Source of the DNA: a virus
Lineage: Duplodnaviria; Heunggongvirae; Uroviricota; Caudoviricetes
Strand: one strand, 5' to 3'
DNA: 5,539 nucleotides
IMG/VR virus record: IMGVR_UViG_2681813263_000007
The translations under genes were made by a program, and so were the position numbers. Positions 1-5,539 of this stretch are shown here, in pieces. Within the stretch, counting starts at the first letter, position 1. Every line of letters starts with the position of its first letter. A model generated the notes under the pieces. That model did no database searches and had not been told where the DNA came from. It was given only the letters and a program-made list of their open reading frames with translations.

Positions 1-2
1 TG

Positions 3-83
3 GTAGTGTCCGCTATTGCCAGTACACCTCACTCTGACGGAGAGTTTGTGGCAGTGGCTGCGGTGACCGTCAGCGCACCATAA
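3..83 (+). CDS. 3' end of an upstream gene, probably the major tail protein (gpV-like); 5' end lies outside the window
   Basis: Only frame 3 is open from the window start; it reads VVSAIASTPHSDGEFVAVAAVTVSAP and stops at TAA 81-83. The other two + frames hit stops within the first 40 nt. Assignment to a major tail protein is by position immediately upstream of G, not by recognised sequence. Confidence 0.45.
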   Translation, partial: VVSAIASTPHSDGEFVAVAAVTVSAP

Positions 84-141: not shown

Positions 142-528
142 ATGTTTCTGAAACAGGATACGTTTAATTATGAAAAACAGTCCGTGGTGCTCAGTGAGCT
201 GTCCGGGCTGCAGAGAATTGAATATCTGACGTTTGTTCAGCAGCGAACGGCAAAGTTTGATGCACAGGAGGGAGAACTGCCGGAGGCTGAACGACAGATT
301 GCTTTTCTGCGTATGGGAATGGATATCAATGCCTGGCTGGTTTCCCGCTCACTGTGGAATGCTGAGCAGTCTCAGGATGTTGAGACGCTTTGCGCATCCA
401 TTATGACAACATGGTCGTATGATGCGCTGGGCGCGGGGGCGGAGAGGGTTCTGTCGCTGAGCGGTATGGGGACCATTGAGAATGCCGGGGATGATGATCA
501 TGAGGCGCTGACGCCGGAAAAGTCCTGA
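142..528 (+). CDS. G: Tail assembly chaperone, lambda gpG-like
   Basis: The protein beginning MFLKQDTFNYEKQSVVLSELSGLQRIEYL resembles lambda gpG as I recall it (MFLKTESFEH...TLSELSALQRIEHL). GGAG at 132-135 lies 6 nt before ATG 142. ATG 139 and TTG 124 are in-frame alternatives with poorer spacing. Stop is TGA 526-528. Confidence 0.88.
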   Translation: MFLKQDTFNYEKQSVVLSELSGLQRIEYLTFVQQRTAKFDAQEGELPEAERQIAFLRMGMDINAWLVSRSLWNAEQSQDVETLCASIMTTWSYDALGAGAERVLSLSGMGTIENAGDDDHEALTPEKS

Positions 529-866
529 CGCGGGAAATGCAGTTTGTCATGCGGCTTGCCCGGGAGTTCCGGCGGGCAGACTGGCGGCGGATGCTGTCGG
601 ATATGTCGGCCACTGAGCTTGGTGAGTGGGGCGATTATTTCCGGATGCAGAGCTTCAGTGATGTGTGGATGGATGCGCAGTTTGCCTCGCTGAAGGCATT
701 GATCGTGAGAATGGTGTCCGGCAGCAGCGATGCTGCGGTGGCTGATTTCAGCCTTTTACCGGAAGAGAACGGGATACCGGAGCGAACGGACGAAGAACTG
801 ATGCATCTTGGGGAAGGTATTTCCGGAGGTGTGCGTTATGGACCAGATAGCCAACCTGGTCATTGA
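142..866 (+). CDS. GT: Tail assembly chaperone G-T fusion, made by a -1 programmed ribosomal frameshift near 516-522
   Basis: The -1 frame is open from 504 (just after TGA 501-503) to TGA 864-866 and overlaps the end of G. It encodes ...REFRRADWRRMLSDMSATELGEWGDYF...GGVRYGPD, which resembles lambda gpT. The T frame has no convincing independent ribosome binding site, and in lambda T is made only as the G-T fusion. Confidence 0.75.
516..522 (+). other. Candidate -1 slippery heptamer G GAA AAG for the G-T frameshift
   Basis: Zero-frame codons are GAA (517-519) and AAG (520-522); the -1 frame codons are GGA (516-518) and AAA (519-521). The site is 2 codons before the G stop, the same relative position as lambda's G GGA AAG. 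P-site re-pairing of tRNA-Glu on GGA would need a G:U pair at the middle position. Confidence 0.55.
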
Positions 867-2716
867 TTTGGGGATTGATGCGGCAGAGTTTAAAAATGAA
901 ATTCCCCGTATCAAAAACCTTCTGAATGGTGCAGCCAGCGATGCAGAACGGTCTTCTGCCCGTATGCAGCGTTTTATGGAGCGTCAGACTCAGGCGGCCC
1001 GGCAGACAATGCAGGCGGCTTCTTCGGCTGCAACAGCAGCATCAGCCCATGCGCAGACGGNNNNNNNNNNNNNNNNNNNNNNNNNNNNNNNNNNNNNNNN
1101 NNNNNNNNNNNNNNNNNNNNNNNNNNNNNNNNNNNNNNNNCCGTCTGCGCGTGGATGCCCTGAATCAGAAAATGCTCGAGGAACAGGCGCAGGCCAGGGC
1201 ACTGGCGGAGGCGCAGGATAAAGCGGCTGCCGCCTTTTATCGCCNNNNNNNNNNNNNNNNNNNNNNNNNNNNNNNNNNNNNNNNNNNNNNNNNNNNNNNN
1301 NNNNNNNNNNNNNNNNNNNNNNNNNNNNNNNNNNNNNNNNNNNNNNNNNNTGGTCAGCAGGATTATCTGGCGCTGATTTCGGAGATCACGGCGAAAACCC
1401 GTGCCCTGACGCAGGCAGAGGAACAGGCCACCCGGCAGAAAGCGGCGTTTATCCGCCAGCTTAAAGAGCAGGCAACCCGCCAGAATCTGTCGTCTTCTGA
1501 GTTGCTTCGCGCCAGGGCGGCTCAGCTGGGGGTAAGCAGTGCTGCAGAAGTGTATATCCGCAAAATGGAGCGGGCAGGAAAAGCCACACATTCGCTGGGG
1601 CTGAAAAGTGCGGCAGCCCGGCGGGAGCTGGGGGTGTTAATCAGTCAGATGGCGCGCGGCAATTTTGGTGCGCTGAGGGGATCCGGGATAACGCTGGCTA
1701 ACCGTGCCGGATGGACAGGCGCACTGATGTCGCCGAAAGGCATGATGACTGGCGGCGTTATTGGCGGACTTGTCGCGGCGGTCCTGGGTCTGGGTAAAGC
1801 CTGGCATGACGGCCGGAAGGAGGGCGAGGAATTTAACCGTCAGCTGGCGCTGACGGGACATTATGCCGGTGTCACTGTCGGGCAGTTGTGGAAACTCAGC
1901 CGGGCCATATCCGGGAATGGTATCACGCAACATGCGGCAGCCGGTGCGCTGGCACAGGTGGTGGGCAGTGGGGCATTTCATGGAAACGATATTGGTATGG
2001 TGGCGAAAGCTGCCGCACAGATGGAGCGATCGGTTGGCCAGTCGGTCAGCGATACCATAAATCAGTTTAAGCGGCTGAAGGATGATCCTGTAAATGCCGC
2101 GAAGGCGCTGGACAATGCGCTGCATTTTTTGACTGCCACTCAGCTTGAGCAGATACGCGTCCTTGGGGAGCAGGGGCGGTCCAGTGATGCGGCCCGGATC
2201 GCCATGTCTGCGCTGGCAGAGGAAACCGGTAAACGCACATCTGATATTGATAATAATCTCAATGCGCTGGGTAGTACGCTGCAAACCTTGTCTGACTGGT
2301 GGAAGCAGTTCTGGGATGCGGCCATGAATATTGGTCGTGAAGACTCGCTGGATGCGCAGATTGATGCGTTACAGGAAAAAATTCAGCGCGCGAAAAAATA
2401 TCCGTGGACAAACGCCTCCACACAGGTGGAGTACGATCAGCAGCGTCTTAACGATCTTCAGGAGAAAAAACGCCGGAAGGATTTGCAGGATGCAAAAGCG
2501 CAGGCAGAACGGAATTACCAGGAGCAACAGAAACGCCGGAATGCTGAAAATGCCGCGCTGAACCGGATGAATGAAACGGAAGCTGCACGACATCAGCGTG
2601 AAAATGAACGTTACGAAAAAGCCATTAAGAAAAATACACGGGCAACCCGTAATGATGAGGCCACCCGGTTATTGCTGCTGCCAGACAGTCAGCAGGCATT
2701 GCCACTGAAAGGATGA
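838..2716 (+). CDS. H: Tail tape measure protein (lambda gpH-like), N-terminal and central portion; contains two N-runs and ends at a frame break
   Basis: GGAGG at 825-829 lies 8 nt before ATG 838. The N-terminus MDQIANLVIDLGIDAAEFKNE resembles lambda gpH (MAEPVGDLVVDLSLDAARFDE). The start overlaps the end of T by 29 nt. Coding runs in frame 1 up to the first N-run and in frame 2 after it (RLRVDALNQKMLEEQAQARALAEAQ..., then a long alpha-helical K/R/E/Q-rich region). The central segment ...LSDWWKQFWDAAMNIGREDSLDAQIDALQEK aligns with lambda ...FKSMWDAVLDIGRPDTAQEMLIKAEAAYKK. Frame 2 ends at TGA 2714-2716. Confidence 0.85.
1061..1140. other. Run of 80 N (unresolved or masked sequence) inside the tape measure gene
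   Basis: Directly visible. The coding frame differs on the two sides (frame 1 before, frame 2 after), so the true length is not 80. Confidence 0.95.
1245..1350. other. Run of 106 N (unresolved or masked sequence) inside the tape measure gene
   Basis: Directly visible. Frame 2 is the coding frame on both sides, whereas 106 is 1 mod 3, so the true length is probably not 106. Confidence 0.95.
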
Positions 2717-3813
2717 CTGAAGCGCATAAACAGCTTCTGGCCCTGCAGCAGCGCATCAGCGACCTGGACGGGAAAAAGCTGACGGCAGATGAAAAGAGTG
2801 TGCTGACCCGTAAGAATGAGCTGATTCAGGCGCTGACGCTGCTGGATGTGAAACAGCAGGAGCTGCAGAAACAGACAGCGCTTAACGACCTGAGAAAAAA
2901 AACGGTTCAGCTGACCAGCCAGCTGGCAGACAAAGAACGTGCACTGCGTGAGCAGCACAATCTGGATATTGCCACTGCAGGTATGGGGGATAAGCAGCGG
3001 CAGCGCTACCAGGCACAGTTGCGCATCCGGCAGGAATACCGGCAACAGTTGCAACAGCTTGAGAATGACAGTCGCCAGAAAGGCACTTACGGGACGGAGG
3101 ACTACCGGAGGGCTGAGGAGGTGCTGAAGGGGAGCCTGAAGCGACAACTGAATGAAAACAAACGCTACTGGCAGGAACTGGAAGTGGCGCAGGGCGACTG
3201 GAAAAACGGTGCCATGCGGGCGTTTCAGCATTTTACGGCGGATGCGGATAATGCGGCGGGAACGGCAGAACAGATGTTTACAGTGGCATTCAGCAGTGCC
3301 GGTAATGCACTGGCGACATTCTGTACCACCGGTAAGCTGAATTTTAAATCCTTCACCTCTTCCCTGTTGTCAGATATGGCCAGAATTATGGCACAGATGG
3401 CCATGATGCAGGCGGTAAAGGGCGTCGGTTCTTTATTCGGCTTCACGACTAATGCTGATGGCGGTGTTTACCAGTCTGCTGATTTGAGTCGCTACAGTGG
3501 CACGGTGGTTAACCGTCCGACGTTTTTTGCTTTTGCAAAAGGCGCGGGTGTGATGGGGGAAGCGGGACCTGAAGCCATTCTGCCACTGCGTCGCGGTGCT
3601 GATGGTAAGCTGGGGGGTGTGGCGGATACTGGTGGTTCAGGCATGGTGATGTTTGCCCCGCAGTACAACATTGAGATCAATAACGATGGCACGAACGGGC
3701 AGATAGGTCCGGCTGCCCTGAAGGTGGTTTATGACCTCGGGAAAAAAGCGGCCGCGGACTTTATGCAACAGCAGGCCCGTGATGGTGGCCGGTTAAGTGG
3801 AGCATACCGGTAA
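2713..3813 (+). CDS. H: Tail tape measure protein (gpH-like), C-terminal portion, in frame 1; probably the same gene as 838-2716 separated by a frame break
   Basis: ATG 2713-2715 overlaps the upstream TGA (ATGA). Frame 1 is already open from 2659. The product TEAHKQLLALQQRISDL... aligns with internal lambda gpH (DSAHAALLTLQAELRTL), and the C-terminus NNDGTNGQIGPAALKVVYDLGKKAAADFMQQQARDGGRLSGAYR matches the lambda gpH C-terminus (NNDGTNGQIGPAALKAVYDMARKGARDEIQTQMRDGG...). Stop TAA 3811-3813 overlaps the M start. Confidence 0.85.
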   Translation: MTEAHKQLLALQQRISDLDGKKLTADEKSVLTRKNELIQALTLLDVKQQELQKQTALNDLRKKTVQLTSQLADKERALREQHNLDIATAGMGDKQRQRYQAQLRIRQEYRQQLQQLENDSRQKGTYGTEDYRRAEEVLKGSLKRQLNENKRYWQELEVAQGDWKNGAMRAFQHFTADADNAAGTAEQMFTVAFSSAGNALATFCTTGKLNFKSFTSSLLSDMARIMAQMAMMQAVKGVGSLFGFTTNADGGVYQSADLSRYSGTVVNRPTFFAFAKGAGVMGEAGPEAILPLRRGADGKLGGVADTGGSGMVMFAPQYNIEINNDGTNGQIGPAALKVVYDLGKKAAADFMQQQARDGGRLSGAYR

Positions 3814-4142
3814 TGGAGACGTTTCACTGGAAAGTGCGCCCGGATATGAATGTGGTATCAGAGCCGAAAGTGGTGACAGTGAAGCTGGGCGATGGTTATG
3901 AACAGCGTCGTGCGGCGGGACTGAATAACCAGTTGTCGACTTACAGCGTGACGATACGTGTTCGTAAAGGTGAACACCCATTTTTAAAAGCCTTTCTGGA
4001 ACGGCACGGTGGCGTCCGCGCATTTCAGTGGACGCCACCTTATGACTGGAAGCCGATCAGGGTGGTTTGTCGTAAATGGTCGGCAAGCGTGGGGGCGTTG
4101 TGGGTAACCATAACGGCAGATTTTGAACAGGTCGTGGCATAG
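3813..4142 (+). CDS. M: Minor tail protein M (lambda gpM-like), 109 aa
   Basis: METFHWKVRPDMNVVSEPKVVTVKLGDGYEQR...HGGVRAFQWTPPYDWKPIRVVCRKWS...ADFEQVVA resembles lambda gpM along its length and has the same size. TAATG start/stop overlap with H; GGAG at 3799-3802 upstream. Confidence 0.92.
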   Translation: METFHWKVRPDMNVVSEPKVVTVKLGDGYEQRRAAGLNNQLSTYSVTIRVRKGEHPFLKAFLERHGGVRAFQWTPPYDWKPIRVVCRKWSASVGALWVTITADFEQVVA

Positions 4143-4151
4143 GAGGCTCTG

Positions 4152-4850
4152 ATGCAGGATATTCCACAGGAAACACATCATGAGACGACACGCCTCACTC
4201 AGTCAGCCCAGGTGGTGCTCTGGGAAATCGATCTGACAGAGGTCGGTGGAGAACGTTATTTTTTCTGTAATGAGCAGAACGAAAAAGGTGAGCCGGTTAC
4301 CTGGCAGGGGCGGCAGTATCAGGCATACCCCATTCAGGGGACGGGATTTGAACTGAACGGCAAGGGCAGTGCTGCCCGTCCGACACTGACGGTTTCTAAC
4401 CTGCACGGAATGGTCACCGGGATGGCGGAAGACCTGCAGAGTCTGGTCGGCGGAACGGTGGTCAGGCGTAAGGTTTACGCCCGTTTTCTGGATGCGGTGA
4501 ACTTCGTCAACGGAAACAGCGACGCCGATCCGGAACAGGAGGTGATCAGCCGCTGGCGCATCGAGCAGTGCAGCGAACTGAGCGCGGTCAGTGCCTCTTT
4601 TGTGCTGGCCACACCAACGGAGACGGATGGCGCGGTTTTCCCGGGGCGTATCATGCTGGCGAATACCTGTATGTGGACTTACCGTTCTGATGAGTGTGGT
4701 TACACGGGCAGGGCAGTGGCTGACGAGTTCGACAAACCAACGACGGATATCCGGAAGGACAAATGCAGCAAGTGTATGCGCGGGTGTGAGTTGCGCAACA
4801 ATACCGGTAATTTCGGCGGTTTCCTTTCCATCAATAAACTTTCTCAGTAA
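4152..4850 (+). CDS. L: Minor tail protein L (lambda gpL-like), 232 aa, with a C-terminal cysteine cluster
   Basis: Closely resembles lambda gpL as I recall it (MQDI.QET...VVLWEIDLTEVGGERYFFCNEQNEKGEPVTWQGRQYQ...NFGGFLSINKLSQ). AGGAGG at 4141-4146 lies 5 nt before ATG 4152. Stop TAA 4848-4850. Confidence 0.93.
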   Translation: MQDIPQETHHETTRLTQSAQVVLWEIDLTEVGGERYFFCNEQNEKGEPVTWQGRQYQAYPIQGTGFELNGKGSAARPTLTVSNLHGMVTGMAEDLQSLVGGTVVRRKVYARFLDAVNFVNGNSDADPEQEVISRWRIEQCSELSAVSASFVLATPTETDGAVFPGRIMLANTCMWTYRSDECGYTGRAVADEFDKPTTDIRKDKCSKCMRGCELRNNTGNFGGFLSINKLSQ

Positions 4851-4854
4851 ATCC

Positions 4855-5539
4855 ATGACACAGACAGAATCAGCGATTCTGGCGCACGCCCGGCGATGTG
4901 CTCCAGCGGAGTCGTGCGGCTTCGTGGTAAGAACGCCGGAGGGGGAAAGATATTTCCCCAGCGAGAATATCTCCGGTGAGCCGGAGGAACGGTTCCGGAT
5001 GGCTCCGGAGGACTGGCTGCGGGCACAAATGCAGGGTGAGATTGTGGCGCTGGTCCACAGTCATCCCGGTGGTCTGCCCTGGCTGAGTGAGGCTGACCGG
5101 CGGCTGCAGGTGCAGAGTGATTTGCCGTGGTGGCTGGTCTGCCGGGGGGCGATTCACAAGTTCCGCTGTGTGCCACATCTTACCGGGCGGCGCTTTGAGC
5201 ACGGGGTGACGGACTGTTACACGCTGTTCCGGGATGCTTATCATCTGGCAGGGATTGAGATGCCGGATTTTCATCGCGGGGATGACTGGTGGCGTAACGG
5301 TCAGAATCTCTATCTTGACAATATGGAGGTGACGGGTTTTTACCGTGTCGCACTGACAGAGGCACAGCCGGGCGATGTGCTGCTGTGCTGTTTTGGTTCA
5401 TCGGTGCCGAATCATGCCGCCATTTACTGCGGTGACGGCGGGCTGCTGCACCATATTCCTGAACAACTGAGCAAACGAGAGAGGTACACCGACAAATGGC
5501 AGCGACGCACACACTCCCTCTGGCGTCACCGGGCATGGC
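4855..5539 (+). CDS. K: Tail assembly protein K (lambda gpK-like), with a JAMM/MPN motif and an NlpC/P60-like region; 3' end lies outside the window
   Basis: MTQTESAILAHARRCAPAESCGFVV...EIVALVHSHPGGLPWLSEADRR...GVTDCYTLFRDAY...HAAIYCGDGGLLHHIPEQLSKRERY is near-identical to my recollection of lambda gpK. ATG 4855 lies 4 nt after the L stop. No stop codon is reached before the window ends. Confidence 0.93.
   Translation, partial: MTQTESAILAHARRCAPAESCGFVVRTPEGERYFPSENISGEPEERFRMAPEDWLRAQMQGEIVALVHSHPGGLPWLSEADRRLQVQSDLPWWLVCRGAIHKFRCVPHLTGRRFEHGVTDCYTLFRDAYHLAGIEMPDFHRGDDWWRNGQNLYLDNMEVTGFYRVALTEAQPGDVLLCCFGSSVPNHAAIYCGDGGLLHHIPEQLSKRERYTDKWQRRTHSLWRHRAW

Follow-up and report, generated by a model that had tools for sequence, protein, structure and literature searches.

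The tape measure gene of the prophage tail module analysed here is very probably an ordinary prophage pseudogene, which arose by a 43-nt microhomology deletion within a lineage of Shigella sonnei, the tail module decaying further afterwards. Such an event is ordinary in the decay of prophages. That the break is an indel relative to an intact ancestor, giving a tape measure pseudogene in a decaying prophage, was one option of the original prediction, and it is supported by an intact 1013-aa comparator and by the lesions found in the module.

The window, that is, the whole stretch of 5,539 nt that was analysed, was identified in full by exact-protein look-up as S. sonnei contig CXDG01000205.1 (draft assembly GCA_001252135.1; locus L012). 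It holds a lambda-like prophage tail module in the order V'-G-T-H-M-L-K, and the tape measure gene lies between the G/T chaperone genes and M-L-K. The features to which we refer below are as follows.

1-31, reverse strand: terminal 31 nt of IS600; the contig begins within the IS, and the sequence is 100% identical to the IS end in locus L014
32-83, forward strand: final 52 nt of V, the tail tube gene, split off from the remainder by IS600
142-528, forward strand: G, tail assembly chaperone, 128 aa (Pfam Phage_TAC_2 in L012; gpG annotation in E. coli CFSAN029787, locus L001)
537-866, forward strand: T, tail assembly protein frame, 109 aa (Pfam Phage_tail_T; annotated T in L001)
838-2716, forward strand: ORF1, the 5' portion of the tape measure gene (611 aa in relatives without gaps; its start, MDQIANLV, is the PGAP start in L001)
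1061-1140, no strand: scaffold gap, 80 N long in place of 52 nt of real sequence (from relatives with flanks identical to the window)
1245-1350, no strand: scaffold gap, 106 N long in place of 91 nt of real sequence (from relatives with identical flanks)
2594-2598, forward strand: junction, at 2593/2594, of an in-frame 66-nt (22-codon) deletion with CAGCG microhomology (from the alignment)
2671-2678, forward strand: ATTGCTGC, the surviving copy of an 8-nt direct repeat at the junction of the 43-nt deletion (from the alignment)
2678-2713, forward strand: 12 out-of-frame codons after the deletion, LPDSQQALPLKG (from frame reading and comparison with the intact protein)
2713-2716, forward strand: ATGA, combining the ORF1 stop TGA and the ORF2 ATG (bases invariant in the intact L001)
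2713-3813, forward strand: ORF2, the 3' portion of the tape measure gene, 366 aa, equal to residues 648-1013 of the intact protein
3813-4142, forward strand: M, minor tail protein, intact in the window (Pfam Phage_min_tail)
4152-4850, forward strand: L, minor tail protein, intact (Pfam Phage_tail_L)
4855-5539, forward strand: K, tail protein (C40 peptidase / JAB), without a stop up to the contig end; collinear with K of L001

A programmed -1 shift operates at the G/T genes of phages of this type. In the window, the stop codon of G is at 526-528 in frame 1. Frame 3, which encodes T, is already open 5' of the T start codon (ATG 537), through CCG GAA AAG TCC TGA, and the single canonical heptamer at G/T, GGGAAAT at 532, is located 3' of the G stop. 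A lambda-like -1 G-T frameshift here would need a non-canonical site, such as GGAAAAG.

Reading of the frames around the break confirmed three points that had been predicted: frame 2 runs into TGA 2714-2716, from 2659 onward frame 1 is open, and the two meet in an ATGA overlap. Frame 2 near the break reads ...NDEATRLLLLPDSQQALPLKG (in a longer stretch, ...RATRNDEATRLLLLPDSQQALPLKG) and ends at this TGA, and frame 1 carries the stops TAA TGA TGA at 2650-2658 and has ATG 2713 as its first ATG, GTG or TTG codon, with both frames jointly open over 58 nt. ORF1 consists of native codons up to 599, then the 12 out-of-frame codons, then the TGA. The continuous ruler frame is broken in the window at 2678-2716, and the same gene is one 3042-nt CDS in close relatives.

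The numbering of the frames is affected by the two N runs inside ORF1, which are scaffold gaps of arbitrary length, since the corresponding real sequence in relatives with identical flanks is 52 and 91 bases long. The true frame of the tape measure gene from ATG 838 is frame 1, and ORF1 shows up in frame 2 downstream because the gap at 1061-1140 is 28 nt too long. The second gap exceeds the real sequence by 15 nt, and the total excess of the two is 43. A compensating frameshift hidden in the N runs (28 + 15 = 43) was considered and rejected as a coincidence, because the two stretches measure 52 and 91 nt in the relatives, whose ORF1 is a single frame from ATG 838 onward.

For the comparison with an intact gene we used the closest complete genome, E. 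coli CFSAN029787, in which a single 3042-nt CDS between T and M encodes a 1013-aa tape measure protein (WP_046881168.1). Nucleotide identity to this allele is 99.6-99.9% on both sides of the break, with one mismatch in 1253 nt for window positions 1351-2603 (99.9%) and four mismatches for ORF2 (99.6%). The alignment of the break region contains just two gaps, of 66 nt and 43 nt, each with flanking direct repeats. Two copies of ATTGCTGC are spaced by exactly 43 nt in the intact gene and one of them is retained in the window, so that a near-identical intact allele and a repeat-ended gap with one copy kept, the pattern of a deletion pseudogene, are both found. The frame is shifted because 43 is 3n+1. 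The lesion had been predicted to be a 1-nt deletion or a 2-nt insertion, and this size was wrong: the alignment gives a 43-nt deletion with its junction at 2671-2678. The 66-nt deletion leaves the frame unchanged and occurred between CAGCGnGAAAnT repeats (window 2593-2599), the flanks in the intact allele being CAGCGgGAAAtT and CAGCGtGAAAaT. Relative to WP_046881168.1, the window thus lacks 66 nt in frame and 43 nt out of frame, and carries three derived amino-acid changes in its 3' part. Since locus L014 has the 43-nt deletion and retains the 66-nt segment, the frameshift is the older of the two and the 66-nt deletion came later in a sublineage.

Two other origins of the break were ruled out. 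Tandem Repeats Finder reported no array at the break site in either the window or the intact relative, where just dispersed 8-11-mers are present, and a tandem-repeat origin was rejected on this basis in favor of the short dispersed repeats. A recombination junction between divergent tape measure alleles was rejected because of the 99.6-99.9% identity to CFSAN029787 on either side. Further downstream the two prophages do diverge: the G and T neighbours in CFSAN029787 are identical to those in the window, and 94 of the 98 mismatches between window and CFSAN029787 fall after 3982, in divergent mosaic patches of M, L and K (window 3982-5300). This distribution indicates a putative recombination boundary near the M gene between the window and the CFSAN029787 prophage.

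These data are consistent with a simple course of events. An ancestral 1013-aa gpH homologue lost 43 bp between two 8-bp ATTGCTGC repeats, replication slippage or another microhomology-mediated event being the likely route. Translation from ATG 838 now runs through the 12 out-of-frame codons to the formerly out-of-frame TGA at 2714-2716, and the remainder of the gene persists as an ORF that can first be started at an ancestral internal Met codon, which overlaps that TGA. The mutation has been inherited within a lineage of S. sonnei. Lacking a continuous length ruler, this prophage copy would presumably be unable to build its own tail, and the 66-bp in-frame deletion, the insertions of IS600 in V and M (in different isolates) and the amino-acid changes in ORF2 represent later damage.

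A break in a short-read draft might also be produced by sequencing, assembly or scaffolding when near-identical tail modules are collapsed, and several properties of these contigs point in that direction: the same gene holds two N gaps of wrong length, related scaffolds are chimeric with duplicated M-L-K blocks at single-N joins, and locus L007 joins intact-type and deleted-type pieces. Nevertheless, the junction lies in continuous sequence, 1.3 kb from the nearest N gap, and flanking repeats of 8 nt are too short to mislead an assembler. An identical 33-nt junction was found in four IMG/VR contigs, all from isolate genomes, and at 10 of 10 places obtained by the exact-protein look-up (24 contigs read). 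Besides the window's own assembly, at least nine S. sonnei assemblies and read sets, from different assemblers, share it; among those bearing it are scaffolded Sanger assemblies as well as gap-free contigs from independent assemblers and read sets, namely NCBI AAURZM-prefix (L009) and Logan ERR1009120 and ERR5975928 (L015 and L016). In L014 the 43-nt deletion is present on a different haplotype, the one with the 66-nt segment. The 43-nt junction is real and heritable; we consider an artefact extremely improbable, and the sequencing or assembly error that had been listed among the predicted options is refuted by the identity of the junction across independent assemblers and read sets.

The split form of the gene is the rarer of the two. 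The intact form is present in 9 of the 10 closest complete E. coli genomes, and a single 90% cluster contains seven different alleles of 1013 aa, which come from S. flexneri, S. boydii, S. dysenteriae and E. coli; one of these alleles is present on 117 contigs. Each split half is found on 17 contigs, all from S. sonnei, both being deposited as 'tail length tape measure protein [Shigella sonnei]'. The window's junction occurs in 0 of 5426 complete E. coli genomes, and the junction 33-mer had no match in a genome contig set with one genome per species. Because the split allele occurs only in S. sonnei and the intact allele is widespread, the intact gene is the ancestral form, and the split goes back to a single mutation passed on in a clonal host. 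It had been proposed that close relatives carrying the same two-ORF arrangement and producing infective phage would argue against pseudogenization. Of these two points only the first was observed, in that the arrangement is common to close relatives; the copies are near-identical and from S. sonnei rather than from diverged relatives, and look like one inherited mutation. The cluster of ORF2 also includes the C-terminal fragments P0003 (451 aa, 16 contigs) and P0004 (230 aa, from a complete S. flexneri 2a genome). Truncated pieces of this kind are found repeatedly in S. flexneri, which suggests that the tape measure gene was disrupted independently on other occasions in Shigella.

At the protein level, ORF1 matches Pfam TMP_2 (PF06791) with 158.9 bits (gathering cut-off 30.2) and ORF2 matches Tape_meas_lam_C (PF09718) with 87.7 bits (gathering cut-off 23). 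A third domain, TMP_4, corresponds to residues 613-690 of the intact protein and is detected in ORF2 at 40.4 bits with only profile positions 29-72 kept. Residues 622-647, 26 in number, are missing from both split products, and since this loss lies inside TMP_4 the break is within a conserved domain and not between domains.

The module shares with lambda the gene order G-T-H-M-L-K and the Pfam domains TMP_2, TMP_4 and Tape_meas_lam_C, whereas lambda gpH has 853 aa and the ancestral protein here had 1013 aa, now divided into ORFs of 611 and 366 aa. The intact relative and lambda gpH are 25% identical by BLASTP (E = 5e-46), with a conserved C-terminus (NNDGTNGQIGPAALK), and the break lies opposite gpH residues of about 465-495, in the coiled-coil middle of the protein. 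The continuation after the break had been paired with a lambda segment through TEAHKQLL, which did not hold up; BLASTP pairs DSAHAALL with DEATRLLL upstream of the break, in a low-complexity coiled coil where the detail of the pairing is ambiguous and has no bearing on the overall reading. Lambda gpH is said, from the work of Katsura in 1987, to act as one continuous ruler, and it is on this property that a probable loss of tail function in the split gene is based.

The 58 nt that are open in both frames 1 and 2 would permit programmed ribosomal frameshifting or transcriptional slippage in 2659-2716, by which the full-length protein would be restored, and a programmed -1 shift is in use at the neighbouring G/T genes of phages of this type. 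However, no XXXYYYZ slippery heptamer was found in 2630-2720 and no homopolymer of four or more bases in 2640-2720, in agreement with the prediction that 2659-2716 contains neither a homopolymer nor a slippery motif. The overlap was produced by a deletion too recent for a dedicated signal to have evolved, and the restored product would still be short of 14 codons inside TMP_4. Recoding at this site has next to no probability in our view.

Damage is also found elsewhere in the tail module. Homology to gene V of CFSAN029787 begins at window position 32, which corresponds to position 676 of L001, where the V CDS ends at 727; IS600 is thus inserted 52 nt before the V stop, and V is interrupted in the window's genome. 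The IS in L014 matches annotated copies of IS600 from S. sonnei plasmids at 100% identity. Loci L003 and L005 begin at the same place as the window, and L015 and L007 retain an intact V. In L014, another IS600 (L014 3137-4390) cuts off gene M after 76 codons. ORF2 differs from the C-terminal 366 residues of the intact 1013-aa allele at three positions, and these lineage-specific changes, A679T, N820H and V949G, together with one synonymous change, occur in 0 of 8 intact alleles. The 3:1 ratio of amino-acid to synonymous changes is what neutral drift would give, four changes being too few for a formal test, and at about 99.8% identity and four substitutions the gene is too close to the intact alleles for a meaningful dN/dS. 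In the gap-free L009 and L015 the remaining tail genes U, V, G, T, M, L, K, I, J, lom and stf are intact ORFs. The lesion is thus a recent one in a prophage that is not grossly degraded. The lesions in V, M and H together with the domain break indicate that tail function is probably not being preserved in this module.

With these observations the stop/start overlap itself can be considered, for which an alternative reading is a two-part tape measure, ORF2 being translated by termination-reinitiation at ATGA and both polypeptides, or ORF2 alone, supporting tails, perhaps of altered length. The ATGA overlap exists, the arrangement is inherited in many isolates, the adjacent tail genes are intact in L009 and L015, and an E. 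coli O121 lineage reached the same overlap through an independent 3n+1 deletion. However, the bases of ATGA predate the split. In the intact gene they are part of GAA AGG ATG ACT, encoding E R M T in the segment ...E-R-M-T-E-A..., with the TGA out of frame, and they are invariant in intact alleles, so that they are neither specific to the split form nor conserved for it. Because the same bases already code inside the intact gene, the overlap is fortuitous and not an evolved coupling, and no selection can be read from it. AAAGGA, the one purine-rich run present, directly adjoins ATG 2713, and a normal Shine-Dalgarno interaction is unlikely there because no spacer is present.

The convergence in O121 is likewise less informative than it appears. 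In strain 201805972 (locus L002), PWR57_RS13040 belongs to the same gene family and has the same terminal TGA and ATGA overlap as the window, under the PGAP label 'frameshifted', after a 3n+1 deletion in the same 60-nt stretch; it differs in that its deletion is an independent one of 46 nt between 11-nt ACAGTCAGCAG repeats, and in lacking the 66-nt deletion. The two genes share their stop TGA because any 3n+1 deletion entering the frame after TGA 2600-2602, an interval of about 110 nt, ends there, and the convergence is therefore forced by frame. Against a two-part gene stand also the break within TMP_4, with 26 ancestral residues gone from both products, the rarity of the split allele, confined to S. 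sonnei while the intact allele is widespread, and the IS600 insertions in V and M plus the extra deletion, which amount to no protection of tail function. A continuous ruler, as lambda gpH is reported to be in Katsura's 1987 study, does not fit with a gene in two parts either, and a literature search for functional split tape measure genes found no relevant case. Taken together, a functional two-part gene is very unlikely, and coupling of a split gene through ATG 2713, as had been suggested, is unsupported given the pre-existing ATGA, the break inside a Pfam domain, the rare S. sonnei-only allele and the further lesions. Some ORF2 protein may be made by termination-reinitiation at ATGA.

Related S. 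sonnei scaffolds (L008 1-7400; L010/L003 4800-8300) contain M-L-K-I blocks duplicated in tandem, along with a second tape measure gene, with single-N joins. In L007 (9700-9780), an intact-type stretch that is continuous through both deletion sites is joined over an N gap to a deleted-type stretch. These genomes probably contain several near-identical tail modules, combined with scaffolding chimeras, and a second, intact copy in the same genome may provide the tape measure in trans. Lambdoid prophages of enteric pathogens commonly have frame-shift mutations, deletions and IS insertions, and co-resident prophages sometimes complement such defects (Asadulghani et al. 2009, PMC2669165). The Sp prophages of E. 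coli O157 Sakai (PMC2669165) are comparable, with several similar lambdoid prophages, lesions in morphogenesis genes and possible complementation; the present case differs in its host, S. sonnei.

The interleaved repeats around the break (ATTGCTGC twice, 43 nt apart, and ACAGTCAGCAG twice, 46 nt apart) could also mean that this 60-nt stretch is a recurrent deletion hotspot which switches off tails, the ATGA-coupled halves perhaps being retained for a function, and we regard this as very unlikely. If it were true, the hotspot would repeatedly disable tail production of this prophage family in S. sonnei and E. coli O121, and the retained halves might give a particle with a short tail, interfere with lambdoid phages during superinfection, or take part in complementation with an intact copy resident in the same host.

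With the gene regarded as a deletion pseudogene, the finding has little significance beyond annotation, where it illustrates that a chance ATGA, together with scaffold gaps whose length is arbitrary, can look like a designed gene architecture. The deposited pair of ORFs deserves annotation as one frameshifted pseudogene, and this prophage copy is to be scored as tail-defective when the mobility of S. sonnei prophages is judged. The 43-nt junction may serve as a lineage marker within S. sonnei, either by itself or combined with the 66-nt deletion and the insertions of IS600.
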